IMG/VR virus record: IMGVR_UViG_3300017987_000006
Location: 96,001-160,000 of that record
Length of the DNA stretch: 64,000 bases
DNA from: a virus
Strand: one strand, 5' to 3'
Below, in pieces: positions 28,720 through 49,196 of this stretch. The translations under genes were made by a program, and so were the position numbers. The notes beneath the pieces were generated by a model, which was not told the origin of the DNA, made no database searches, and saw only the letters and a list, made by a program, of their open reading frames with translations. Each line of letters opens with the position of its first letter. Positions within the stretch are counted from its first letter, which is position 1.

Positions 28720-29597
28720 ATGCATACAAGACCCTGGCCTTTGTAGACGAGCTGGAGAAGCTGGCCCTCGCACCTTCGTTGGTCCAGCGGGCCCTACGGT
28801 CTGGTGTCGGCCGTGCTGTCGTCAGCAACGTCCCGAAGGTCTGGGGCTCTGGTTTCGGGCGCGCGGCAGCGGGAGCCCTGCCTGGGGCGGCCATAGGTGC
28901 TGTGGCAGACCCGCAGGACAGTGTTCGGGGGGCAGTCCTGGGCGGTCTTGCTGGAGCTGGAGCTGGCTATGCATCACCCCTGCTCACGGCTGGGGGTCGC
29001 GCTCGTGCTAGAGAGGCCCTGAAGCAGTGGGGCAGGGAACAGAAGCACTCCTTCGTTGGTGGTGAACTCCCCATCAAAAAAAGCATGAAGCCGGAAGAAA
29101 TCGCGAAACTTCGATCTGCGGAGAAGGCCGGGCTGACTAGTCTGCCGGGCGTAGTCAAGGGGATGGCAAAGAGGCCGCTACAGACGATGAAGGCTGGTTG
29201 GCAACACGCTGGAGGTCTGGGCAAGGCTATGATCGTGGGGGATGTGGCGCTGCAGGCTCCGGGCCTTGTAGACCCAACCACCCCAGAAGGAACGGGGGAG
29301 AAGGCCCTGCGGATGCTCGGAGGGACAGCAGGATTTCTTGCCGGAGGAAAGCTGCCGATGTTGGCTAGCCTGGCCCCCATGGCCGGGCTGGCGTACCTCG
29401 GCGGGAAGGCTGGTCGCGGGATCGATGTGTTGACAGGCGAGAGAGCAAAGAAAAAGAAGATGATGACTGCGGCGCAGCAGGCCGAAGCCGACAAGTTTTT
29501 GCGGGTCAGGCCTACTACTGCTCTCGCTCAGCGGGAGGCGCGGAAACTCGTCCCGGCCGGGTACATCCCGGCTGGGTACGGACCGGGGGTTGTCTGA
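28716..29597 (+). CDS. Gly/Ala-rich basic protein with ELEK leader (glycine-zipper-like)
   Basis: MNAYKTLAFVDELEKLA; GxxxG repeats. Confidence 0.65.
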   Translation: MNAYKTLAFVDELEKLALAPSLVQRALRSGVGRAVVSNVPKVWGSGFGRAAAGALPGAAIGAVADPQDSVRGAVLGGLAGAGAGYASPLLTAGGRARAREALKQWGREQKHSFVGGELPIKKSMKPEEIAKLRSAEKAGLTSLPGVVKGMAKRPLQTMKAGWQHAGGLGKAMIVGDVALQAPGLVDPTTPEGTGEKALRMLGGTAGFLAGGKLPMLASLAPMAGLAYLGGKAGRGIDVLTGERAKKKKMMTAAQQAEADKFLRVRPTTALAQREARKLVPAGYIPAGYGPGVV

Positions 29598-30772
29598 TGG
29601 ACCTCGGAACAGTTGGCGCTACACGCTTCTCCAGATCTCGCGGCAGGATAACTGGATCTGGAACCAGCGGCATCAGCTATCCGAGCCCGTTCTTCGATAT
29701 CGGGCATACGTACCTGCCCACCACCGTCAAGCAGATGTTCAGGTGGTGTCGGTACTACTTTTTAGTTCACCCGCTGATCAACTCGATCATCTTCAAGATG
29801 GCCCAGTATCCGATCACGGACCTGGTCTATCACACCGACGATCCGCACTTGAAGGACCGGTGGAGGGAGATCTTCGAGGACGTTCTCAAGTACCGCTGCT
29901 TCCAGATGGAGATCGGTCTCGACTTCAACACGTACGGCAACGGGTTTGTCTCAATGTTCTTTCCGTTCCGGAAGATCATTGAGTGCACGAACTGTCATAA
30001 CAGCGAGGCCGCAAAGGACGCCAGGTACTACTTCCGCAACTTCCAGTTCTATTGGAAGTGCCCACGCTGTGGGCACCACGGGCCGACCAAGGTCTATGAT
30101 CGGTACATCAAGTCGACGCGGGGAATCCGCCTCTTGAGGTGGAACCCGGAGGACATCGACGTTCGATACAACGATCTGAACGGCCAGTACACCTACTTCT
30201 ACGACATTCCCGTGAAGTTGAAGAACGACATCATCATGGGGCGGAGACATATCGTGGAGGAGGTGCCGCAGGTCTTCATCGAAGCGCTTCGACGGAAGAA
30301 GGCTATCGTCTTCAACAACGACAACATCTACCACTTCCGACGCCCGACACTGGCTGGCAAAGATCGAGGGTGGGGAATCCCATTGATCTTGCCGGTGCTG
30401 AAGGACGCCTTCTACCTGCAAATACTGAAAAAATCTCAAGAATGTGTGTCTTTAACCAGCGAGCTGGAGACATCGGGCGGGCTGGTGCAGGCGGACGATG
30501 TTAGGGTTGGGGACCTCGTGAGAACTCATACGGGCGCGTGGAAATCCGTGGAGAAGAAGTGGTATCGGGACGCCCGAGAAGAAGAGGTCGGCAGGAAGAT
30601 CACTCTCACGAGTCTTCGTGGGTATCCGACAACGTATTCTCCACAACATCCAATCTTTACGATCCGCAGAAACGGGATTAATAGACGGACGGACACGAGA
30701 GAAGCTCCACGCTCCTCAATAATTTTGAGCAGGCCGCATCTTTATGAGGAGGTCCTTTGTCCGGCAGAGTAG
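29597..30772 (+). CDS. Portal protein, N-part (extein with Zn ribbon + intein N-region), ends at in-frame TAG
   Basis: YPSPFFD, HPLINSII, RGWGIPLILPVLK portal-like motifs; CTNC...CPRCG insertion; intein starts SQE|CVSL. Confidence 0.7.
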   Translation: MDLGTVGATRFSRSRGRITGSGTSGISYPSPFFDIGHTYLPTTVKQMFRWCRYYFLVHPLINSIIFKMAQYPITDLVYHTDDPHLKDRWREIFEDVLKYRCFQMEIGLDFNTYGNGFVSMFFPFRKIIECTNCHNSEAAKDARYYFRNFQFYWKCPRCGHHGPTKVYDRYIKSTRGIRLLRWNPEDIDVRYNDLNGQYTYFYDIPVKLKNDIIMGRRHIVEEVPQVFIEALRRKKAIVFNNDNIYHFRRPTLAGKDRGWGIPLILPVLKDAFYLQILKKSQECVSLTSELETSGGLVQADDVRVGDLVRTHTGAWKSVEKKWYRDAREEEVGRKITLTSLRGYPTTYSPQHPIFTIRRNGINRRTDTREAPRSSIILSRPHLYEEVLCPAE

Positions 30773-31723
30773 TTGGGTATCGGGGAGTACGTCCTCTATC
30801 CGCGGTATCTCCCCGTGCAGGAGACAACCTACGTTGACGTTGCTTTAAGGACCGGGTTGGTGAGTACTGACGGGTTCGTCTATAGTGGGTGCTGTGAGGA
30901 CACCGCTGTCGCTTTCGAATCTTTGGAGCGGGGAGAAAGGGTACCACACGACAACCCGGGGCGAGTAGCGAAGAGGGCGATTCGTGATGGGCGCACTCCG
31001 AAGAGAATGCCCAGGATCATTCCCATGACGGACGACCTGGCTTACATCCTCGGTTGGTATGCTGGTGATGGGAGCTGCAATGCCAGAAGTGTATTTTTCA
31101 GCCTTGGGAAAGGGGATGATTCCCTTTCTCTCATCGGGGCTATTCAGCGAGAGTTCGGGGTTACACCCACCGTGGAGGAGGGAAAATCTGTGAACACGGT
31201 GGTACTGTCCGACGTCATCGTACGTCATTTGATCAAGGGCCTAGTACCCGGGACAGCTCGACATAAAAAAGCCCCAGAAGAGGTGCTCAACGCCCCAAAC
31301 AGCATGAAACTTTCATACCTGCGTGGGTTGTGGGAGGCAGACGGGTCAGCAGGCGAAAAGAGTATATGCATCACCTCCACCAGTCGAAACCAAGCATATG
31401 ACGTATATAGGATCGCGATCCATGTTGGCTGTATCGCTTCCATCGGAAAATCGAAGCCGAGCGTTAGCGTAATTGATGGAAGAGAGGTACGAAGCAAAGG
31501 ATCGTACAATGTGACCGTATGCAATGCGTCGGCCGATCGTCTGCGTTCTTTGTGGGAGTGCGGGGAGGGCCCTGATATTACATCAGGGAAAAGCGGGTTC
31601 TTTTGGGGTGACTACTTTGCCACCAGGATCTGCGCAATTGAAGAGGTTGAGGAGGCACAGTATATAGACTTCAAGGTAGCCGATGACACCACGTTCTGTG
31701 TCCCGGGTACGGCCACAAAGAAT
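30443..31723 (+). mobile_element. LAGLIDADG intein in the portal, interrupted by TAG at 30770-30772
   Basis: CVSLTSEL..., TYSPQHPIF, YILGWYAGDGS, YLRGLWEADGS, YIDFKV...TATKN|S; rejoined extein ILKKSQE-SIALDHIVP. Confidence 0.85.
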
Positions 31724-32911
31724 AGCATTGCGCTCGATCATATCGTCCCACTTCGCGTGATGTTCCCGCAGACCGGCTCGGCAACCGCCGACCCATTCTC
31801 GATGGTCAACCTCTCGGAATGGAAAGATCAAATCGCTGAGGAGATTCAGCGTTGGAGGCTCGATAATAACTACATTCCGATCCTCCCGCTCCCCATCGGT
31901 AATCAGACCATCGGAGGCGATGGTCGGGCGTTGTTGCTCGGGCAAGAGATCAGAGTGTGGTCGGAGCAGATCGTCACCGGGCTGGGGATCCCAATCGAGC
32001 TCATCTTCGGCGGCCTGTCCTACAGCGGTAGCAATGTATCGCTGCGTATGCTCGAGAACATGTTCATCAACTATATGCACGATCATATCGACCTGACGAA
32101 GTGGGTGGTGCGTAAGATCTCTTCTTACATGGACTGGCCATCGATAACGATCAAGTTCAAGCCGTTCAAGATGGCGGACGACTTGCAGCGTAAGGCGTTC
32201 AACCTGCAGCTCTCCCAGGTCGGAAAAATCTCTGACGATTCCCTGCTGTCTGATGCAGATTTCGATCCGGACCACGAGGACAAACAGATCGAGAACGAGA
32301 CCAACCGGCGAGCGGAGGCACAGAAAAAGGCCAGGCTGGCGCAGGCCGAGATCGAAGGCGCGAGTCAAATGATCATGATGCGCTATCAGATGAAGGCGCA
32401 GCAAGAACAGATGCAGATGCAGATGCAGGGAGCTCCGGCTCCCGGGGAGCCGGGAGCAGAGGCGCACGGCGTCGCGGAGGAGAGTGGGATGCAGCCGCAG
32501 CAGCCCCCGCCAGAGCAAGGTGGACCTGGGACTGCTCCGCTTCCTCAACAGATGATGGCTGCGCAGGCGCTGCCACCAATTCCGGCCCAGGCCCGCGCCG
32601 AGCTACCGCCAGCAATGTCGGAGATGGAGTCACCGCTGAACATGGCGCAGCAAGTGGGTCAGGTTAATCAAGACCAGGCTGGCCAGATGAACGTGGATCT
32701 CATAGCGCAAGCTCAGATGGTGGCGGGGCAGCTGATGCGGATGGACGAGAACAGCCGGACGATGGTGCTGATGAACTTGAGACAGCAGTCGCCTGAGTTC
32801 TACCAGGTCGTGTTGGGGCTAATGCAGAGCATGGTGGCCGGCGGCCCCACCGCAGAACCGCCGCCCGAGCAGCAGGCTCCACAGCGGGGCCGCGAGGCCG
32901 CCGCAGTCTAG
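30773..32911 (+). CDS. Portal protein, C-part (intein endonuclease and C-region + portal C-extein with Q/P-rich tail)
   Basis: Same frame as 29597..30772; extein SIALDHIVPLRVMFP...GLGIPIELIFGGLSYSG. Confidence 0.7.
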   Translation: MGIGEYVLYPRYLPVQETTYVDVALRTGLVSTDGFVYSGCCEDTAVAFESLERGERVPHDNPGRVAKRAIRDGRTPKRMPRIIPMTDDLAYILGWYAGDGSCNARSVFFSLGKGDDSLSLIGAIQREFGVTPTVEEGKSVNTVVLSDVIVRHLIKGLVPGTARHKKAPEEVLNAPNSMKLSYLRGLWEADGSAGEKSICITSTSRNQAYDVYRIAIHVGCIASIGKSKPSVSVIDGREVRSKGSYNVTVCNASADRLRSLWECGEGPDITSGKSGFFWGDYFATRICAIEEVEEAQYIDFKVADDTTFCVPGTATKNSIALDHIVPLRVMFPQTGSATADPFSMVNLSEWKDQIAEEIQRWRLDNNYIPILPLPIGNQTIGGDGRALLLGQEIRVWSEQIVTGLGIPIELIFGGLSYSGSNVSLRMLENMFINYMHDHIDLTKWVVRKISSYMDWPSITIKFKPFKMADDLQRKAFNLQLSQVGKISDDSLLSDADFDPDHEDKQIENETNRRAEAQKKARLAQAEIEGASQMIMMRYQMKAQQEQMQMQMQGAPAPGEPGAEAHGVAEESGMQPQQPPPEQGGPGTAPLPQQMMAAQALPPIPAQARAELPPAMSEMESPLNMAQQVGQVNQDQAGQMNVDLIAQAQMVAGQLMRMDENSRTMVLMNLRQQSPEFYQVVLGLMQSMVAGGPTAEPPPEQQAPQRGREAAAV

Positions 32912-33750: not shown

Positions 33751-33779
33751 TTGACTCGCAAAATGTGGGCTGCTATGAT
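33751..33779 (+). promoter_or_regulatory. Strong sigma70-like promoter of the RNAP gene
   Basis: TTGACT-17-TATGAT with extended -10 TG. Confidence 0.7.
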
Positions 33780-33806
33780 CTTCGTCGTATACACAGGAGT
33801 CATCTA

Positions 33807-36800
33807 ATGGCGAGGCTCGCACCTGAAGAGGGGTTCGCCCTCCTCAAAGACCAGGTAGCGGAGACTGTCAAGGAGATCTTCCCGATCAAGGGAACCAAAC
33901 ACACTCTCCGCCTGGACGACATCGAAGTCAAAGACAACAAGGACATCGAGGACATCCGCTCCCAAAAGAAGGCGCGGCTAGAAGGCCGCACCTGGTCCGT
34001 TCCGGTCAACGGTAAGTTGTCTCTCGTTGATAACAAGACCGGGAAGGTGGTCGATCGGCGGACTCAGAGGATCATGAGCTTGCCCAAGGTGACCAACAGG
34101 CACTCCTACATCGTGGATGGTCAGGAGTACCAGATGGACAACCAGTGGCAGCTCAAGCCCGGCGTCTATTCCAGGCGTGATGAGAGGGGCGAGCTGGAGT
34201 CCATGTTCAACCTGAAGGGTAAGCACGCCTTCAAGGTGAAGTTCGACCCAAAGACAGCCAAGTTCTCCATGCTCAAGGGGACCACCAACGTTCCGCTCTA
34301 CCCCATTATGCGCGAGCTCGGGGTGACGGACGAGGACCTCGAAAAGTCGTGGGGCAAGCAGATCTTGCAGTCCAACAAGGTCAAGTCTTCAGACGCTGCG
34401 CTCGAGCGGTTCTACAAAGCCGTAAACAGAGAAAAGCCCTCGGACCCGCGCCAGGCCAGGGAGTTTTTGCAGGAGTTCATGGACGGGGCGAAGATGGACC
34501 CCGACGTCGCCCGCATCACGTTGGGCGATAAGCATGACACTGTCGGCGGAAAGACGATCCAGCTCGCCTCGCAGAAGCTGTTGGGCATCAGCCGCGGTGA
34601 CGTGAAACCAGATGCACGCGACAGCCTGATGTTCAAGAACTTCCGCTCGACAGAGGACTTCGCACGCGAAGCGCTTCAGACCAGGAGTGGAGAGATCTTA
34701 CGGCGCGTCGGAAATAACCTGGACCGGAAAGGAAAGATCCAGGAGATCGTCGGGCCGGACATTTTCAACCGTCCCATCAATGCGCTGTTCAAGAAGGCCA
34801 ACCTGTCCAACCGACCAGACCAGACCAACCCGCTAGAAATGATCTCCGGAGCGATGAAGACGACGATCATGGGTGAGGGTGGTATCACGAGCGAGCATAA
34901 GATCACTGAGGATGCAAAGCTCATCGATCCTTCCCACCTCGGTTTTCTCGATCCGATCCATACTCCTGAATCGGCGCGAACAGGCGTGTCGTTGCATCTT
35001 CCTCTTGGGGCGCGAAAGAAGGGGAACAAGCTCGTCACCAAGATGTACAACATCAAGACGGGTAAGATGGAGGATGTCGATCCCGAGACGGCGTACAACG
35101 CCAATATCGTCTTGCCAGATCAGGTGAAGTGGAGGGATGGAAAGCCCGTCCCAATCGGCAAGACCGTCAAGTTCAGCGGCCAGGAAAACGAAATCACAAC
35201 GGGCAGTATGAAGGGGGCGGACTACGTAATGCCGGCCCCGGCACAGCTCTTCTCTGTCGCCTCCAATATGATCCCCTTCCTTCAGAACGACTCCGGGAAC
35301 AGGGCAACGTACGCCAGCAAGCAGATGGAGCAGGCCATCCCACTGAAGCATCGAGAGTCTCCGTTGGTGCAGACCGTCATCGCCGCAGGGAAGAAAGAGA
35401 CCAGCCTCAACAAGTTCATGGGGAAGATCAATTCCCATACGACTCCAATTGATGGAGAGGTTGTGCAGGTCAAAAGCGATAGCGTGGTGATCAAGGGAGC
35501 GGACGGGAAGCGCAAGGAGGTTCAGACTTACGACCACTTCCCGTTGAATGACGACAAGAGCTTCTTGCACTCGACGCCGCTGGTGAAGGTTGGCGATAAG
35601 GTCAAGAAGGGGCAGACCGTAGCCGACACGAATTTTACCAAAAAGGGAGATCTGGCACTCGGATCGAACTTGACGACGGCGTATGTCCCGTTCCACGGGT
35701 ACAACTACGAAGATGGTGTGGTGATCTCCGAGTCCGGGGCGAAGCAGCTCACGAGCGAGCACATGCACCGTAAGGGCCTGGACGTCGGCAAGGAGCACAC
35801 GCTCAGCAAGGACGCGTTCCTCAAGCACTACGGGATGACGCTCAAAAAAGACCAAGCTGACAAGCTGGACGACGCGGGCGTGATCAAAAAGGGACAGAGG
35901 GTTGGTCCGGGAGACACCCTGGTAGCGGCCTTGCGGCATCGGGAAGAGACGGACGAGGACAAGATCCGTAGGCGGATGCACAAGTCGTTGGTCAAACCAT
36001 ACGACAACGTCTCCGTCACCTGGGACAACGATCATCCAGGCGTCGTGACGAACGTGGTGAAGCGAGGCAAACGCGCAGAGGTTCATGTCAGGACTGAGGA
36101 GCCGGCGGAAATCGGCGATAAGATCAGCGGCAGGCATGGGGACAAGGGCATTATCACCCGCATCGTCCCAGATCACGAGATGCCCACAACCAAGGACGGG
36201 AAGCGTGTTCATCTGGCGCTGAACCCGGCGGGGGTTGCTGGACGTATCAATTTGGGACAGGTCCTTGAGGCAGCGGCCGGGAAGATCGCCGAGAAGACTG
36301 GAAAGCCATACCGCGTGCAGAATTTTGACGGCACTGAGGATATGACCGAGCGTGTCCAGAAAGAGCTCAAAGAGCACGGTCTGTCCGACAAGGAAGAGCT
36401 CATCGACCCCAAGACCGGCAAGACGATGGGGAGGGCTTTGGTGGGGCCGCGGTACATGCACAAGCTTAGACACCAGGTCGGAAAGAAGCTCGTAGCCCGT
36501 GCTGGAGGACCGGACTACGCCTACGATATGAATCGCATTCCGAAGCGTGGCGGTCCGCACGGGGCGCAGGCGTTGGACTCTTTGGGGGTCTACGCGATGT
36601 TGGCTTCCGGAGCCAAGGCGAATCTTCGTGAGATGCAGACTTACAAGAGCAACGCGGAGAACAACGATGAGCTGTGGTCTGCGGTTCAGACTGGAGATCC
36701 ACTCCCAGCTCCCAGGCCCTCATTCGCCTACAACAAGTTCGTCGGCATGCTCAAGACTATCGGCGTCAACACGGTCAAGCAAGGCAACACACTGAACCTG

Positions 36801-39800
36801 ATGCCGCTGACGGACAAGCAAGTCAGGGAGATGAGTGAGGGTAGGACGATCAAGGACGCCGGGAAGATGGTCCTCGGGAAGAACCTCAAAGAGGAGAAGG
36901 GAGGCATCTTCGATAAGGACGCGACGGGCGGGCTGAACGGGACCAAGTGGTCCCATATCGAGCTGCCCGAGCGGATGCCGAATCCGATCTTCGAGAAGGC
37001 CATTGTCAGCCTCACCGGCATCAAGAAAAAAGATCTCGGCGCGCTGATGGACGGCAGCAAGGCCCTCAACACCAAGACGGGTCAGTTCACGTCGCCGGAG
37101 GAAGGGGTCTCGGCGGGAAAGGCTGTCGAGCACCTGCTGAAAAAGATCGATGTGGACGCGGAGCTCGCCTCCGCACAAAAGCAGATCCAAAACCCAAGCC
37201 TGAAAGGAGACAGGCTGGACAAGGTTAACAAGAAGATCAAATATCTGCGCTCGTTGAAGAAGCTGGGAATGACGCCGACGGAGGCGTACATGACCAAGAC
37301 CGTGCCTGTCCTCCCGCCATCCATGCGTCCTCTGGCCGTGCGCCCCAACGGAGAGCTCGGTGTCGAAGATCTGAATGGGATGTACAAAGGTCTTGGCATC
37401 GCCATCAACAAGATGAAGGATGCCAGCCCGCTGCAGCTACCGGAAAAGATCAACAAGAGACGAGCGGCGATCTATGATGCGATGAAGGGTCTGGCCGGGA
37501 CTGGGGGGTACCTCAACCGAGACTACCGCGGGGTACTCGACATCATCGCCGGGAAGAAAGCGCAGGGTCCGGAGGGAAAGCCTGGGAGTCCGCGGGAGAG
37601 TTACTTCCAGTCCAAGTTGATCAAACGGAAGCAAGATCTGTCGATGCGGTCCACCATCATCCCCGAGCCTGAGCTCGGCCTGGATGAGGTTGGGATCCCT
37701 CGCAAGGCTGCGATGGAAATGTACAAGCCGTTCATCGTCAGGGAGTTGGGGAACTTTGCTGGGCTGAGCCCACTGGCGGCGCAGCAAGCCATCAAGGACA
37801 GGGACCCGCTGGCCGCGCGTGCGCTGGAACGTGTGGTCAAAGAACGTCCGGTGATGTTGAAGCGCGATCCGGTCCTCCATAAGTACGGAGTACAAGCATT
37901 CAAGCCGGTGCTCACTAGCGGCAAGGCGATCAAGATCCATCCCCTGGTGACTGGCGGATTCAACGCCGACTTTGACGGCAATTGTGTTGACGGCTGCTCC
38001 GAATTGGTGATAAGGTGTTCTGGTCTTGCGAGGGAGCACTTTATGAAATTCGGAGCAGAGTCTTTGACAGTGGCGAGAGATCCTGCGCTTGGGATCAATG
38101 CCGACCGTATTATGATCAAGAACTTTCCACGGGAGGAAGAACCACACAGGTACGATCGAAATGGCGCTGCCGTCTACCGTGTCCCGGACGGATTGCAGGT
38201 CCTTTCGTACGATCACTTCTTGGGTGAGTCGACGTTCGAGGACGTCACTGAGCTAACCATCGAGGAGGACTGTCCTGTAGTCGAAGTGCGTTATGCGTCT
38301 GGACACAAGGTTACTGCTTCTACTAATGAGTCTTTGTGTGTCTATGACCACGAGACGGGAATGCTGCGCAAGGCACGGCCGGAGGAATCTGTAGGGGCAC
38401 TAAGCCCTGTCATCTCGTCTCCTCCCGGTGATAAGCACGACAAGTTTTTCGGGTGGATGGTAGGCGCTTTTGTGTCTGATGGATTCTTCACCAACGGGCG
38501 CATCGGAATCACCAAAGTCGATGACGAGTTCCGCTCAACGTTTGGGGATGCTCTAAGAACGTTCGGCGATGTGTACGCAAGCAACACATACCGCAGAGAA
38601 AAAAAGGCACCGACCGATTTCTCAGAGCATAGCGTCAAAGATCACTACACCGTGGGGGGAGAGATCAAAGACCTGTTCATGAGGTGCTACACCGTAGAGT
38701 ACAGATCTTATCTACGGGATGGAACGCGGAGCGGCGAATTAAAGAATAAGCGGGCAGCACTATACAAGCGCCTACCACAGGACATCGGCGACTATTCCAG
38801 AGATGCCTTGCTCGGTGTATTGTCCGGCTTGTTGGATGGGGATGGGACACTTTCCTGGAGCAGGTCTAAAACGAAGGAGCAGTTCCTGGCTTCGTATTCC
38901 ACCAGCTCCCACCAGCTGATGGAAGACGTCCGATATTTGTGTCACTTGCTAAATGTTCGCTGCTCTGTGTCACCAGTCTACCCCCGTGCGAATAGGGCGC
39001 AGAGGCACATCAACTATGTCATCTCATTCAGCACCGTAGATATTGAGAAGCTGGCTGGGGAGTTGCGCCTCGCTGCTTACTCGGATACGTTGATCAAACT
39101 GGCAGCGAACCCGCTGTCCAAGGATGATCGGGACGTGGTTCCTGTGCCGATATCGATCTTACGCGGCATGATCAGTAAGAAGAGTGTGGTGTTCAAAAAA
39201 GACCCAAAGCTCTGTAGATCGCTGGCTACGTTGGCGTCAAAAAATAAGAGACGTCCGAGGGTCTCCAGAGACACGGCGCTCAGAATGGTCCCCTATCTGA
39301 ATTTGGAAAACGCACTGGAAGCATATTGGTCATCCTTAGTGAAATCTGATGTCCGATGGTCTTACGTGAAAGAAGTCGAAGATAAGGGAAAGACGACCGT
39401 ATACGATTTGGTCGTGCCTACTACCAAGATCTTCGCGGTCAATGGTGGGCTGGTGGTGTGGGACACCATGGCGGCATTCGTTCCTCTGACCTCCGAGGCG
39501 GTGGACGAGGCGCGGAAGATGTATCCATCCAGGAACCTTTTCAGTCCCGCTACCGGAAGCTTGATGTACAAGCCGACGAAGGAGAGTCAACTTGGGCTCT
39601 ACAAGCTGACCCAGCAGGGCAAGCGGACGGACAAGGCGTTCAAGACCGTGGCCGAAGCTGCGAGGGCTGCCTCAGCAGGATCCGTGGGGATGACTGATGT
39701 GGTCAAGATTGGCGGACAGCAGACCACCATTGGGCGCGCTCTGGTAGCCAACGCGCTACCTCAATCCATGCGCGGCGGTGTGATGAGCGGGAAGACCCCA

Positions 39801-41507
39801 CTGGACGGGAAGGGGCAGACGGAGCTGCTGACTCGCTTGGCGAAAGATCACAAGGGGTCATTCGGCGAAGTCGTCAACAAGATCAAAGACCTCGGAAACA
39901 GCTACGCCACGCAGACCGCTTCTTCGCTTGGCCTCGAAGATCTCCGCGCCGACAAGAAGCTGCGGGACCGCATCCTAAAGTCCGCGGACGCCAAGGTGAA
40001 GGAGATCATGTCGGGGAAGGGGACGAAGGAGCAAAAGCAGAAGAAGGCGATCCAGATCTACGACAAAGCATCGGAGGCAATGATCAAGGCTGCCGAAATC
40101 GACCACGCCAAAAACCCTACTGAGCTATTTCAAATGTTGAAGGCGGGGATCAAACCGCAGATGGGCGCGTACCGTCAAATCACCATGGCTCCGATGCTGA
40201 TGATGAACGCCAAGGGCAAGGTCATTCCAGATCCAATCCGCAAGTCCTACTCTGAGGGCATCGATGTGGGCGACTACTGGACGCAGATGTCCGGGGCGCG
40301 CAAGGGCGTTGTACAGAAGGTCCAGTCTGTCCAGGAGCCTGGGTACTTTACCAAGCAGGTAATCAACTCGGTGATGAACAACGCCATCGGGGAGCAGGAC
40401 TGCGGGACCAAGAAGGGGATCACACTCCCTATAGAAGAGCGCGACGTGCTAGATCGATACCTGGCAAAGGACACCAAGTCAGGACGCAAGACCTTCAAGG
40501 CAGGGACCTTGATCACTCCCGGTGTTCGCGACAGTCTCAGGAACAACCGCGTCGGCCGTGTCGTCGTTCGTTCTCCGCTCCGATGTGAGCACAGCGGAAC
40601 GGGGATTTGTGCTCGGTGTTATGGTAACGATGAGGATGGGGCTCCCCCACCCACCGGCCGGAACGTCGGCATCATCAGCGCCCAAGCCATCGGCGAGCGG
40701 GCAACTCAGCTCGCCATGCGGACCTTCCACGAAGGCGGGGTGGCCCCTGTCGGCGCGGCGGGGAAGCAGAAGGCCGCACTGACGGACGAGTTCAACCGGG
40801 TGCAGCAGCTCGTTCAGATGCACCAGAACATCCCTGGGTCTGCTCCTCTCAGCTCAGTCAACGGGAGGATAACCAAGATCCAAAAAGATCCTGCTGGCGG
40901 GAGCAACGTGTTCATCTCGGCGGGAGATAAAGAAGTACGCCACTATGTCCCACAAAACCGGGGCGAGCCGCTGACGTTTGTGGGGGACAGGGCCAGAAAG
41001 CTGACGCGTGGTATGCAGATCCAAAAGGGTGCTCCCCTCTCGGCCGGTCCGATAAACCCGAACGAGCTGTTGCCCCTGGCGGGAGTGAACAAGGTGCAGG
41101 GATACCTGGCCGGACAGATGTACGATCTGTACAAGCAGCAGGGGATACGTCGGAGGAACATCGAGACCGTCGTCAAGAGTATGACGAACCTGACCAAGGT
41201 TTCTGACCCGGGCGGACAGTCGGACTTCATTCGAGGCGACTTCGCCCCTACGTCCAAGCTCCAAGCGCTCAACAAGAAGCTGGTCGCGCAGGGAAAGAAG
41301 CCTATCGCACACAGGCCGGTGTTGAAGGGGGTCAAAACGTTGCCGCTCGACATGCAGACAGACTGGATGGCAAGATTGAACCATGAGCAGCTTGCTGGTA
41401 CAGTCGTCGATGCGGCGAACCAAGGATGGAGCAGCAATATCCACGGAGAGCATCCGATCCCAGCGCTTGCCTACGCAGCTGAATTCGGAAAGAAGAAACC
41501 ATACTAG
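33807..41507 (+). CDS. Single-chain two-barrel RNA polymerase (beta-beta' fusion) with intein
   Basis: Beta motifs DQTNPL, DPIHTPE, IPFLQND..NRA, GYNYEDG, GDKISGRHGDKG, LNPAGVAGRINLGQ; beta' motifs VPVLPP, RDPVLH, NADFDG, GARKG, CEH...CARCYG, AQAIGERATQLAMRTFH; start MARL at 33807 (RBS AGGAG). Confidence 0.95.
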   Translation: MARLAPEEGFALLKDQVAETVKEIFPIKGTKHTLRLDDIEVKDNKDIEDIRSQKKARLEGRTWSVPVNGKLSLVDNKTGKVVDRRTQRIMSLPKVTNRHSYIVDGQEYQMDNQWQLKPGVYSRRDERGELESMFNLKGKHAFKVKFDPKTAKFSMLKGTTNVPLYPIMRELGVTDEDLEKSWGKQILQSNKVKSSDAALERFYKAVNREKPSDPRQAREFLQEFMDGAKMDPDVARITLGDKHDTVGGKTIQLASQKLLGISRGDVKPDARDSLMFKNFRSTEDFAREALQTRSGEILRRVGNNLDRKGKIQEIVGPDIFNRPINALFKKANLSNRPDQTNPLEMISGAMKTTIMGEGGITSEHKITEDAKLIDPSHLGFLDPIHTPESARTGVSLHLPLGARKKGNKLVTKMYNIKTGKMEDVDPETAYNANIVLPDQVKWRDGKPVPIGKTVKFSGQENEITTGSMKGADYVMPAPAQLFSVASNMIPFLQNDSGNRATYASKQMEQAIPLKHRESPLVQTVIAAGKKETSLNKFMGKINSHTTPIDGEVVQVKSDSVVIKGADGKRKEVQTYDHFPLNDDKSFLHSTPLVKVGDKVKKGQTVADTNFTKKGDLALGSNLTTAYVPFHGYNYEDGVVISESGAKQLTSEHMHRKGLDVGKEHTLSKDAFLKHYGMTLKKDQADKLDDAGVIKKGQRVGPGDTLVAALRHREETDEDKIRRRMHKSLVKPYDNVSVTWDNDHPGVVTNVVKRGKRAEVHVRTEEPAEIGDKISGRHGDKGIITRIVPDHEMPTTKDGKRVHLALNPAGVAGRINLGQVLEAAAGKIAEKTGKPYRVQNFDGTEDMTERVQKELKEHGLSDKEELIDPKTGKTMGRALVGPRYMHKLRHQVGKKLVARAGGPDYAYDMNRIPKRGGPHGAQALDSLGVYAMLASGAKANLREMQTYKSNAENNDELWSAVQTGDPLPAPRPSFAYNKFVGMLKTIGVNTVKQGNTLNLMPLTDKQVREMSEGRTIKDAGKMVLGKNLKEEKGGIFDKDATGGLNGTKWSHIELPERMPNPIFEKAIVSLTGIKKKDLGALMDGSKALNTKTGQFTSPEEGVSAGKAVEHLLKKIDVDAELASAQKQIQNPSLKGDRLDKVNKKIKYLRSLKKLGMTPTEAYMTKTVPVLPPSMRPLAVRPNGELGVEDLNGMYKGLGIAINKMKDASPLQLPEKINKRRAAIYDAMKGLAGTGGYLNRDYRGVLDIIAGKKAQGPEGKPGSPRESYFQSKLIKRKQDLSMRSTIIPEPELGLDEVGIPRKAAMEMYKPFIVRELGNFAGLSPLAAQQAIKDRDPLAARALERVVKERPVMLKRDPVLHKYGVQAFKPVLTSGKAIKIHPLVTGGFNADFDGNCVDGCSELVIRCSGLAREHFMKFGAESLTVARDPALGINADRIMIKNFPREEEPHRYDRNGAAVYRVPDGLQVLSYDHFLGESTFEDVTELTIEEDCPVVEVRYASGHKVTASTNESLCVYDHETGMLRKARPEESVGALSPVISSPPGDKHDKFFGWMVGAFVSDGFFTNGRIGITKVDDEFRSTFGDALRTFGDVYASNTYRREKKAPTDFSEHSVKDHYTVGGEIKDLFMRCYTVEYRSYLRDGTRSGELKNKRAALYKRLPQDIGDYSRDALLGVLSGLLDGDGTLSWSRSKTKEQFLASYSTSSHQLMEDVRYLCHLLNVRCSVSPVYPRANRAQRHINYVISFSTVDIEKLAGELRLAAYSDTLIKLAANPLSKDDRDVVPVPISILRGMISKKSVVFKKDPKLCRSLATLASKNKRRPRVSRDTALRMVPYLNLENALEAYWSSLVKSDVRWSYVKEVEDKGKTTVYDLVVPTTKIFAVNGGLVVWDTMAAFVPLTSEAVDEARKMYPSRNLFSPATGSLMYKPTKESQLGLYKLTQQGKRTDKAFKTVAEAARAASAGSVGMTDVVKIGGQQTTIGRALVANALPQSMRGGVMSGKTPLDGKGQTELLTRLAKDHKGSFGEVVNKIKDLGNSYATQTASSLGLEDLRADKKLRDRILKSADAKVKEIMSGKGTKEQKQKKAIQIYDKASEAMIKAAEIDHAKNPTELFQMLKAGIKPQMGAYRQITMAPMLMMNAKGKVIPDPIRKSYSEGIDVGDYWTQMSGARKGVVQKVQSVQEPGYFTKQVINSVMNNAIGEQDCGTKKGITLPIEERDVLDRYLAKDTKSGRKTFKAGTLITPGVRDSLRNNRVGRVVVRSPLRCEHSGTGICARCYGNDEDGAPPPTGRNVGIISAQAIGERATQLAMRTFHEGGVAPVGAAGKQKAALTDEFNRVQQLVQMHQNIPGSAPLSSVNGRITKIQKDPAGGSNVFISAGDKEVRHYVPQNRGEPLTFVGDRARKLTRGMQIQKGAPLSAGPINPNELLPLAGVNKVQGYLAGQMYDLYKQQGIRRRNIETVVKSMTNLTKVSDPGGQSDFIRGDFAPTSKLQALNKKLVAQGKKPIAHRPVLKGVKTLPLDMQTDWMARLNHEQLAGTVVDAANQGWSSNIHGEHPIPALAYAAEFGKKKPY
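37983..39464 (+). mobile_element. LAGLIDADG intein (494 aa) in the RNAP catalytic motif, atypical C-terminal Asp
   Basis: Starts CVDG; VTASTNESL; FFGWMVGAFVSDG; VLSGLLDGDG; VYDLVV...VNGGLVVWD|T. Confidence 0.85.
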
Positions 41508-47315: not shown

Positions 47316-49196
47316 TTGATGCTTGTCGACCTTGCCAAAAAACGCCGTATCGAGGCCAACAGGATCGTCCCTGTGTCTTATGTGGCCCAGGTCGGGGCCG
47401 ATGGTAAGACCTACTCTGAGCCGTACCTCGATTACGCTGACGGCCCAGATGGAGAATACGGGGCCGGGGAAGAGGAGTACTACGACTTCGATGATGAGCC
47501 TCGTGACCCAACCGCAGAGGAGTTCGCGGCAGGTAACTTTATCTACAATGTGTCCCCGTCCGAGTTCACAGAGACGGCAATCAAGATCGCTACCAGCGGC
47601 AAGGCGTCTAACTTCTCCTTCACCGAGCGCCCCTACCTGGCCCGCATCTACAACACTAACTCCCCGAGAACATTACTAAAATTCGCGCGACAGACTGAAA
47701 AGAGCACGACGCTCGGCAACAAAATGATCTGCTACGCCTGTTTGATCAACCACTTTCGGGCGCTCTATGTAGCGCCGTCGGCGGAGCAGGCCAAGACGTT
47801 TTCCAATGACCGTATCGCAGATGTGATCAATCTGTCTCCGTTAGTCAAGGCGTACACCAACACATATCTGACCAACGCAGTCTTCCAGAAGAAGTTCATC
47901 AACTACTCCAACATCCGACTCCGTTACGCCTACTTAACGGCCGACCGTGTGAGAGGAATCCCTGCGGACAAGATCGATATTGACGAGCTGCAGGACATCC
48001 TGGTCGACAACATTCCCGTCATCGAGGAGTGTGCATCGCACTCGGAGTGGAAGATCTTCACCTATTCCGGGACGCCCAAGTCGCTTGACAACACCATCGA
48101 GCACTACTGGTCAAACTTCTCCACGCAGAACGAGTGGGTCGTTCCCTGTGATCGTCACGGTACGCCAAATAATCCTTCGTCGTGGCACTGGAATATTTTA
48201 GACGAGGACAACATCGGCAAGGATGGACTCGTCTGCGACAGGTGCCACGAGCCCATCGACCCGAACCATCCGATGGCGCAGTGGGCCGCCATGCAGCCGA
48301 TGACGGACGCCAACAAGGACAAGGTTACCTACGAGGGGTACCGCATTCCTCAGATCATGGTGCCGTGGATCTTGAACAAAAAGGACGGCTGGGCAAGCGT
48401 CCTGGAGAGACAGGAGCGGTACAGCCGGCAGAAGTTCTACAACGAGGTCCTAGGTATCAGCTATGATTCAGGAACACGTCCCATTACCAAGGCACAGCTC
48501 AAAGCGTGCTGTAGGCCGGAGATTAGACCTGGAGACTACGAGCACTTCAGGTCTGTCACCGCGGGAACTGAGGTCTTCGCTGGATTGGATTGGGGTACGG
48601 GAGAGCAATCCTACACAGTGATCTCCCTTGGCGCATACATGGGAACTGGCAACTTTACGATCTTTTGGATCCATCGCTTCACCGGAAAAGACCTGGAGCC
48701 TCCGGCACAGCTAGATCGTATCTGTACGATCTTAACCCAGTTCAATGTCAAGCTGTGTGGCTGTGACTACGGCGGCGGGTTTGATCGCAACGATCACCTC
48801 ATCAGAGCCTTTGGCCCGCAGAAGGTGTTCAAGTTTCAATACAACAATAACCAAAAGAAGGGGAAGGTGTACTGGGAGGAACGCCTGCGAAGATTCGCTG
48901 TGCACCGCACAGAGGTGATGAGCGATGTATTCGGGGCGCTGGTAAGGAAGCAGATCGACCTGCCGAACTGGGATGACTTCATAGAGCCGTACGGTCAGGA
49001 CATCTTGAATATCTTCAGCGAGTACAATGAGACGACCAGGATGACCAAGTTCAACCACGCGCCGGGAACGACGGACGATTCGTTCCACTCGATCTTGTAC
49101 TGCTTCCTCGCCTCTATGATCAGATTCCCGCGCCCAGACATTATGGCCGAGATGCAGGACACAGGGGAAGACGACTATCCAAAGCGGAGGCGGTAG
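47316..49196 (+). CDS. terL: Terminase large subunit (lambda gpA-like)
   Basis: FARQTEKST, YVAPS, DIDELQD, YSGTP, Cys cluster, nuclease AGLDWG and TDDSFHS. Confidence 0.85.
   Translation: MMLVDLAKKRRIEANRIVPVSYVAQVGADGKTYSEPYLDYADGPDGEYGAGEEEYYDFDDEPRDPTAEEFAAGNFIYNVSPSEFTETAIKIATSGKASNFSFTERPYLARIYNTNSPRTLLKFARQTEKSTTLGNKMICYACLINHFRALYVAPSAEQAKTFSNDRIADVINLSPLVKAYTNTYLTNAVFQKKFINYSNIRLRYAYLTADRVRGIPADKIDIDELQDILVDNIPVIEECASHSEWKIFTYSGTPKSLDNTIEHYWSNFSTQNEWVVPCDRHGTPNNPSSWHWNILDEDNIGKDGLVCDRCHEPIDPNHPMAQWAAMQPMTDANKDKVTYEGYRIPQIMVPWILNKKDGWASVLERQERYSRQKFYNEVLGISYDSGTRPITKAQLKACCRPEIRPGDYEHFRSVTAGTEVFAGLDWGTGEQSYTVISLGAYMGTGNFTIFWIHRFTGKDLEPPAQLDRICTILTQFNVKLCGCDYGGGFDRNDHLIRAFGPQKVFKFQYNNNQKKGKVYWEERLRRFAVHRTEVMSDVFGALVRKQIDLPNWDDFIEPYGQDILNIFSEYNETTRMTKFNHAPGTTDDSFHSILYCFLASMIRFPRPDIMAEMQDTGEDDYPKRRR

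Follow-up and report, generated by a model that had tools for sequence, protein, structure and literature searches.

The window analysed here, a 64,000-nucleotide stretch of phage DNA, comprises bases 96001-160000 of the 178,259-bp virus record IMGVR_UViG_3300017987_000006 in IMG/VR, which carries direct terminal repeats and is called a complete phage genome. It encodes a fused beta-beta' RNA polymerase whose catalytic loop is interrupted by an intact and apparently mobile LAGLIDADG intein, one of a large lineage targeting the Mg-binding DxDGD loop of phage two-barrel (beta'-type) RNA polymerases. At the place of the third Asp of that loop the gene encodes Asn. Either the polymerase runs without the third Asp or maturation re-creates it.

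Polymerase and intein lie in a single uninterrupted frame (33765-41507). A GTG at 33765 is the upstream limit of this frame; an AGGAG stands 8 nt before an ATG at 33807, and that ATG is the likely start, based on the AGGAG and on the match to a database copy of the precursor (P0184) of the same length, 2566 amino acids. Once the intein is removed, about 2072 amino acids are left. Beta domains recognized by Pfam (Rpb2_3, Rpb2_6) are followed by beta' domains (Rpb1_2, Rpb1_3, Rpb1_5), and between the polymerase domains lie a LAGLIDADG domain and a weak intein-splicing match. The gene holds the sole Rpb2_6 and Rpb1_2 match in the 178,259-bp record and is the phage's only multisubunit RNA polymerase. 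Its nearest cultured relatives, at about 30-34% identity, are found in Vibrio phages D69, D148, and D181 and Salmonella phage Arash, where the catalytic loop reads AADYDGDA; closer relatives without an intein (L005-L009) are 66-72% identical in the C-extein.

Read codon by codon, the loop begins AAC GCC GAC TTT GAC GGC (NADFDG) and continues with AAT, an Asn at position -1, and TGT, the first codon of the intein; at the far junction TGG (Trp493, 39459-39461) and GAC (Asp494, 39462-39464) precede ACC (Thr at +1) and ATG (39468-39470). An earlier note on this DNA had placed an intein inside the catalytic NADFDGD loop with junctions N:C...WD:T (colons mark splice junctions), and the codons bear this out. 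Its end coordinate, taken literally, does not hold: the last codon of the intein lies three bases earlier, giving an intein of 37983-39464 (Table 1). We agree with the note that canonical splicing would yield NADFDGN-TM. As encoded, the loop does not contain the three Asp of NADFDGD; NADFDGN precedes the intein, and the only other Asp nearby is the last residue of the intein itself. These junctions differ from those of a plain insertion after Asp, because intein-free relatives read NADFDGD[S/T/A]M; ten such relatives on viral contigs, 42-72% identical in the C-extein, read NADFDGD[S/T/A]MSAF without the insert.

Table 1. Features of the polymerase gene and its intein (window coordinates; residue numbers count from the first residue of the intein; N-type inteins follow Asn, and the sister clade follows Asp)
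Feature	Position	Strand	Evidence or remark
Fused beta-beta' RNA polymerase gene	33807..41507	+	Pfam Rpb2_6, Rpb2_3, Rpb1_2, Rpb1_3, Rpb1_5
N-extein Mg-binding loop N-A-D-F-D-G, first two Asp of the triad	37962..37979	+	Aligns to NADFDG of solved beta' chains
AAT, Asn(-1), in the place of the third catalytic Asp	37980..37982	+	Asn in 85/85 N-type; Asp in 103/103 intein-free near relatives
Intein, 494 amino acids, HINT splicing domain with nested LAGLIDADG homing endonuclease	37983..39464	+	Pfam, AlphaFold2, Foldseek
TGT, Cys1, N-terminal nucleophile opening block A (CVDGCSELVI)	37983..37985	+	Cys in 85/85 N-type
GAG, Glu94	38262..38264	+	His in 31/31 of the Asp(-1) sister clade
Block B, S113-T-N115-E116-S117	38319..38333	+	Glu116 at the canonical His (TxxH); Asn115 for the sister clade's Asp
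First LAGLIDADG motif GWMVGAFVSDG, acidic Asp166	38445..38492	+	G157, W158, G161, D166, G167 at least 95% conserved
Second LAGLIDADG motif LLGVLSGLLDGDG, Asp285 and Asp287	38805..38858	+	Pfam, alignment, sequence
Blocks F and G TTVYDLVVPTTKIFAVNGGLVVWD	39393..39464	+	Asp475 (F:4), Lys482, Trp493, Asp494
ACC, Thr+1, C-extein nucleophile	39465..39467	+	Thr/Ser in 116/116 intein-bearing genes
Remaining beta' C-extein (MAAFVPLT...) including stop codon	39468..41507	+	Aligns to DQMAxHVP... of solved beta' chains

The insert is in frame and absent from close homologues (the ten viral relatives and 103 of the 119 nearest polymerases). Pfam LAGLIDADG_3 (PF14528) matches at E = 1.2e-9, passing its cut-off, and two motifs with their acidic residues are present; the Pfam Intein_splicing match scores 28.3 bits, under its cut-off of 35.8 bits. 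An AlphaFold2 model of the intein (41 sequences; predicted local distance difference test, pLDDT, 86; predicted template modelling score, pTM, 0.82) found its best PDB matches by Foldseek in PI-PfuI (1dq3, E = 1.7e-18), the TliVMA intein (7qss), and PI-SceI; the fold, as modelled, is that of an intein with HINT domain and nested endonuclease. Nucleophiles stand at positions 1 and +1 (Cys1, Thr+1; 85 of 85 relatives with the same upstream junction), and position 4 of block F is Asp (Asp475, 116 of 116 aligned relatives). The canonical histidines and the terminal Asn are missing. In place of Thr-x-x-His, block B reads Ser113-Thr-Asn-Glu116, with His found only in a sister clade, and in place of the penultimate His and C-terminal Asn the intein ends in Trp493-Asp494, the Asp being present in 116 of 116. 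Lys482 occupies what we take, by eye and by comparison with the Mtu RecA block F, to be the position of the block-F His. Class 3 inteins, which are defined by the lack of an N-terminal nucleophile and by a Cys at block F position 4, part of the Trp-Cys-Thr triplet (PMC4031507), do not accommodate this element, in which Cys1 is present and F:4 is Asp475.

A HMMER search with the intein against 1.84 billion representative proteins returned 534 matches at E ≤ 1e-3, 129 of them at E ≤ 1e-30. Nearly all matches that reach the junctions are RNA polymerase genes with the intein at the same site, beginning D-x-D-G-N:C and ending [W/Y/F]-D:T. Residues were tallied from the best 150 of the 534 matches, of which 93 complete inteins were aligned first; 23 more, from a second search seeded with another member and from two viral contigs, brought the alignment to 116. 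Eighty-five follow Asn (N-type, the type of the window) and 31 follow Asp (D-type), a ratio that is uninformative on relative abundance since an N-type query seeded the sample. In the N-type, Asn(-1), Cys1, Asn115, Asp494, and Thr/Ser+1 occur in 85 of 85, accompanied by Thr92 in 83, Glu/Asp94 in 84, Glu/Asp116 in 79, and Lys482 in 80. In the D-type, Asp(-1), His94, Asp115, Asp494, and Thr+1 occur in 31 of 31, with Ser1 in 27, Cys1 in three, His116 in 29, and position 482 variable. Asp475 and Trp459 are invariant in both types, as is Asp494 (116/116). Members of the N-type share a median pairwise identity of 33% and those of the D-type 30%; across the two types the median is 25%. Since all D-type inteins group in a single clade (support 0.999), the N/D split was one old event, each state having since been held by selection. 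A pattern search of viral contigs for relatives of the intein returned none, phmmer of the intein against PDB sequences gave no match, and neither did tblastn against 50,697 GenBank phage records; thus no cultured phage carrying the intein is at hand. No description of the family was found in a search of the full-text literature, the coverage of which is incomplete, and the family is apparently undescribed so far.

These homologues also settle two points raised by the earlier note. It had proposed collecting relatives to see whether the N...D combination is conserved, and both residues are universal in the N-type. Because the same N:C...[W/Y/F]D:T junctions recur in 85 diverged homologues, the residues are products of neither chance nor error, and two independent sequencing errors, already doubted in the note, are excluded. 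That the two codons are assembly errors, or that intein and polymerase are dead, is the least credible explanation we considered: the record is indeed a metagenome assembly, but the homologues are independent and come from several sources, the 2566-amino-acid frame is open, and the endonuclease and polymerase motifs are intact. The note's description of a reciprocal swap of Asn and Asp between the two junctions, on the other hand, has to be given up. The C-terminal Asp is family-wide and co-occurs with Asp(-1) throughout the sister clade.

What varies between the types is the predicted N-junction site. Asn(-1) covaries with Glu94, Asn115, Glu116, and Lys482, and Asp(-1) with His94, Asp115, and His116, the last being the block-B His. 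The D-type block B, Ser113-x-Asp115-His116, is thus of the ordinary Thr-x-x-His kind; the N-type reads Ser-x-Asn-Glu, and its second His, at position 94, has also become Glu. In effect, two carboxylates have shifted in the N-type from Asp(-1) and Asp115 to Glu94 and Glu116. Residues 94, 116, and 482 would lie near Asn(-1) by their equivalence to blocks B and F; the block-B His of other inteins is located by the backbone nitrogen of residue 1 (PMC4031507). Cys1 alone could have been thought to force Asn at -1. Three D-type members (P0144, P0167, L130) nevertheless combine Asp(-1) with Cys1, and a fourth protein (P0253) also reads NADFDGD:C with a His-type block B. It is therefore the Glu-type site, and not thioester chemistry in itself, that forces Asn.

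The family profile places both Asn(-1) and the terminal Asp of the intein on the same catalytic Asp of solved beta' chains. This would be expected if the segment from Asn and Cys1 to Trp493 were a permanent domain, inserted between Gly and Asp and never removed, with the Asp before Thr serving as third ligand; at the DNA level that is the most economical account, as it needs zero changes in host codons. We regard it as highly improbable. The catalytic loop lies at the buried centre of the enzyme, which a 55-kDa domain would obstruct; the conservation of Cys1, Thr+1, Asp475, and the terminal Asp is that of splicing inteins; and the sister clade would then have two Asp. In the 93 intein-bearing homologues aligned first, the other two Asp of the host and its Gly (D(-4), D(-2), G(-1)) are invariant, and the polymerase is therefore still under selection. 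Because the nucleophiles and these other catalytic residues of the host are conserved, we infer that the window intein is excised and its exteins ligated.

Among inteins of known structure, PI-PfuI (1dq3), TliVMA and PhoVMA (7qss, 7qst), and PI-SceI (1vde, 1ef0) share with the window intein Cys1, the block-F Asp, and an architecture in which a two-motif LAGLIDADG endonuclease is embedded in a HINT domain (Foldseek E from 1.7e-18 to 1e-10). Identity to PI-PfuI, TliVMA, and PI-SceI is nevertheless only 9-14%. In the window intein, unlike in these, Glu replaces the block-B His, Lys the block-F His, and Trp-Asp the final His-Asn, and the element needs Asn at a position that is otherwise a catalytic Asp of the host. 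A parallel in position is the PolII (DP2) intein of family-D DNA polymerase (PolD; Pyrococcus abyssi, Thermococcus sp. 9 degrees N), which interrupts the homologous acidic loop of another two-barrel polymerase and also follows Asn. There the loop reads N:CDGD, Asn or Asp is functional (PMC7708050; PMC4996933), and the intein ends in Gln (PMC4031507). The PolII intein, however, follows the first position of the triad and the window intein the third, and in the phage polymerases Asn occurs only with the intein. Other inteins ending in Asp or Gln, for example that of CIV ribonucleotide reductase, likewise have a terminal residue other than Asn and are presumed to cyclise at step 3 (PMC4031507); those have been described as scattered variants, whereas here Asp is invariant in 116 diverged members and all the conserved histidines have been lost.

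Loss of the block-B His has few precedents. Only two inteins without it were known in 2014 (PMC4031507), and PolB16 OarG tolerates its loss by relying on a second His near Ser1 (PMC10189870). Like Tko CDC21-1 and PolB16 OarG, which dispense with the block-B His, the window intein lacks it and has Glu there. The Asp(-1) sister clade, with Ser1, His94, His116, and Thr+1, resembles the cysteine-less Ser1 inteins that carry a motif-NX His; its His94 is preceded by Ile or Val and the motif-NX His by Arg or Lys, and the equivalence is only putative. The window intein is unlike the Ser1 motif-NX inteins in having Cys1 and Glu at both positions, with no Arg/Lys-preceded His at residue 94.

Comparison of intein and host points to movement of the element among polymerase genes. 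Relative to P0002, the exteins of the window gene are 71-73% identical and the intein only 58%; the reverse holds for P0215, with 70% identity in the intein and 57-61% in the exteins. For an extein tree we used 16 N-type, nine D-type, and 10 intein-free genes and omitted the junction residues. The three intein states require at least nine changes on this tree; when the labels were shuffled 1000 times, the mean was 16.4 and the lowest value 11. The window gene falls in a clade (support 1.00) of five intein-free and two N-type genes. The incongruent trees of intein and host point to horizontal mobility. The polymerase gene therefore switches back and forth between Asp and Asn with the gain and loss of inteins, and the codon for Asn, which adjoins the insertion point, travels with the element.

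Similar elements were encountered elsewhere in related polymerases. Other LAGLIDADG inteins occupy further conserved sites (P0014, P0015, P0032, P0038, P0093, P0145, and others), for example after GDKL in the beta part or inside beta', and some proteins, with two or three inteins apiece, are as long as 3000-4000 amino acids. Proteins of about 480-700 amino acids that run from near intein residue 43 into the C-extein (P0017, P0039, P0043, P0065, P0073, P0079, P0080, P0085, P0110, P0114) may each represent the large half of an atypically split form of the intein, or else a truncated gene call.

How the polymerase copes with the encoded Asn can be reconstructed in several ways; the earlier note named an active enzyme with Asn, deamidation, an unusual splicing route, and a conditionally inactive enzyme, each of them still a candidate. 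The reading we favour, to which we give about an even chance, is that the mature enzyme keeps Asn and works on a D-D-N triad, by analogy with archaeal PolD and its NxDGD loop. Asn(-1) would then be part of a rewired, histidine-less N-junction site of the intein and not a polymorphism of the host; Asp at -1 would clash with the carboxylates of Glu94 and Glu116. Homing driven by the endonuclease would copy the Asn codon into Asp-bearing alleles along with the intein. Because Cys1, Thr+1, Asp475, Asp494, and the other Asp and Gly of the host are kept, splicing would follow the usual four steps with ligation: the thioester of Cys1 would form at Asn(-1), the N-extein would pass to Thr+1, the intein would be released by cyclisation of Asp494 in place of Asn, and an O-to-N shift would give ...NADFDGN-TMAAFVP.... 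Mg binding by a D-D-N triad would probably be weaker, a cost that the homing drive could offset. In favour of this reading, the same four reactions are assumed for inteins with a terminal Asp or Gln (PMC4031507), and Asp(-1) leads to premature N-terminal cleavage in many inteins (PMC11842431). In PolD, moreover, the NxDGD loop functions with Asn or Asp, the intein separates that Asn from the Cys that follows (PMC7708050), and about half of PolD-encoding archaeal species carry an intein at that place (PMC7708050; PMC4996933).

Several observations weigh against a retained Asn. The nearest polymerases (119 genes, 51-73% identical in the N-extein, from the best 120 of 2276 matches) include 103 without an insert, and all 103 have Asp at the third position; the earlier note had considered that intein-free homologues might routinely read DFDGN, which these do not. 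Across IMG/VR, the pattern NADFDGD-x-M was found in at least 120 stretches and NADFDGN-x-M in none. The Asp triad has been described as invariant in multisubunit RNA polymerases (PMC5856549). In PolD the Asn is at the first position of the triad, not the third, and is retained also where no intein is present. Replacement of a metal-ligand Asp by Asn is usually very damaging to polymerases, as in T7 RNA polymerase D537N and D812N. The sister intein, so far as its junctions indicate, occupies the same site without giving up Asp, and each N-type invasion would have to be viable at once.

Two observations from the same searches concern the loop more widely. A scan of IMG/VR for bare NADFDGN was dominated by an abundant, unrelated phage ATPase (NADFDGNVYFITGDNELGKST; EFNADFDGNVYFITGDNELGKST) that holds this string by chance (L015-L126, IMG/VR contigs, mostly from sample 3300045988). 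A third intein lineage was found at the same polymerase site (P0196, P0238, P0283, P0293, P0296, P0194, P0281); it reads NADFDGD:QQ... or :DQ..., without a nucleophile at position 1, and ends ...LSN:TM with the canonical Asn. In the set of 119 polymerases, 14 have an insert at this site: N:C in three (including the window gene), D:S in three, D:C in one, and D:Q or D:D in seven, which are members of this third lineage.

The residue that follows the loop bears on whether the two exteins are joined. In the 103 intein-free genes it is Thr in 48, Ala in 42, Gln in eight, Ser in three, and Lys in two, as compared to Thr or Ser in every one of the 116 intein-bearing genes. Since Thr/Ser+1 is fixed only when the intein is present, ligation is under selection. 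An alternative is that the intein cleaves without ligating, so that the polymerase works as two chains (...DFDGN and TM...), the new C-terminal carboxylate possibly providing the third ligand. Natural splits are frequent in such phage polymerases, and in Vibrio phage D69 and Salmonella phage Arash one gene ends about 90 amino acids past the loop; a 2017 study by Minteer reportedly found that Asn or Asp at -1 can promote N-terminal cleavage, and the same ability is on record for Asp (PMC11842431). Yet these natural splits fall outside the loop, and selection for Thr/Ser at +1 is sensible only if that nucleophile is used for ligation, which counts against cleavage alone. We consider such a two-chain enzyme very unlikely.

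A more serious contender, though we hold it only tentatively and as the less probable course, is that splicing is coupled to editing: Asn(-1) would be converted to Asp during or just after splicing, and the mature enzyme would have the canonical DFDGD. Asp is kept in every intein-free gene, and the host gene switches repeatedly between Asp and Asn with intein gain and loss; enzymes adapted to Asp must therefore tolerate invasion by the N-type at once. Three routes can be envisaged. In a possible first route, Glu116, at the place where the block-B His touches the backbone nitrogen of residue 1, would assist an attack by this nitrogen on the side chain of Asn, with a succinimide and free NH3 as products; the imide would make the scissile bond reactive towards Cys1 and open to Asp at a later stage. 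In a second, Cys1, Glu94, Glu116, and Lys482 would act like an amidase on the Asn carboxamide; in a third, hydrolysis would be assisted by Mg in the polymerase active site after ligation. In residue type, the N-type-specific Cys, Glu, Glu, and Lys match the Glu-Glu-Lys-Cys tetrad found in nitrilase-superfamily amidases, which turn a carboxamide into an acid via a thioester with release of NH3 (PMC7616060), and cyclisation of an Asn side chain is ordinary intein chemistry (PMC4031507). The likeness to amidases, however, is one of residue types, a new Asp(-1) beside Glu94 and Glu116 would be unfavourable, and hydrogen-bond complementarity explains the covariation equally well. We know of no intein that alters an extein residue, and hydrolysis of a succinimide normally gives mostly isoAsp; both count against editing.

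The polymerase is not the only gene of this phage with an intein. Just upstream, on the plus strand (29597-32911), lies a probable portal gene, as the portal occupies this position in phage Arash, and it has its own, more canonical intein: it starts CVSLTSEL..., has TYSPQHP as block B and a LAGLIDADG domain at 31307-31453, and ends ...TATKN:S. An in-frame TAG (30770-30772) splits this intein into frames of 391 and 712 amino acids. Recoding of TAG was considered and rejected, TAG being an ordinary stop in the phage that ends 21 of 66 long open frames. The interruption may mean that the intein is split, that the gene is broken, or that the assembly is wrong at this point. The large terminase is also in the window (47316-49196).

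Few residues in biology are as conserved as the third Asp of NADFDGD, and the block-B His has been described as the most conserved residue of inteins. Here a mobile intein lineage gives up the block-B His, and its polymerase genes encode Asn for Asp. If Asn is kept, no beta'-type RNA polymerase before these would have been shown to work with an incomplete Asp triad, and they would offer a natural test of the role of the third carboxylate. If Asp is restored, the lineage would represent a new protein-splicing reaction and the first splicing element to change the chemical identity of an extein residue; such editing would also be a way to mask the active site of a polymerase until maturation, and might be of use in traceless ligation at Asp junctions, a context in which many inteins perform poorly. 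A short, defined list of residues separates the sister clades, Asp/His/Asp/His as compared to Asn/Glu/Asn/Glu plus Lys. Whether Asn is retained by the mature polymerase or converted to Asp, the outcome would in either case be new.

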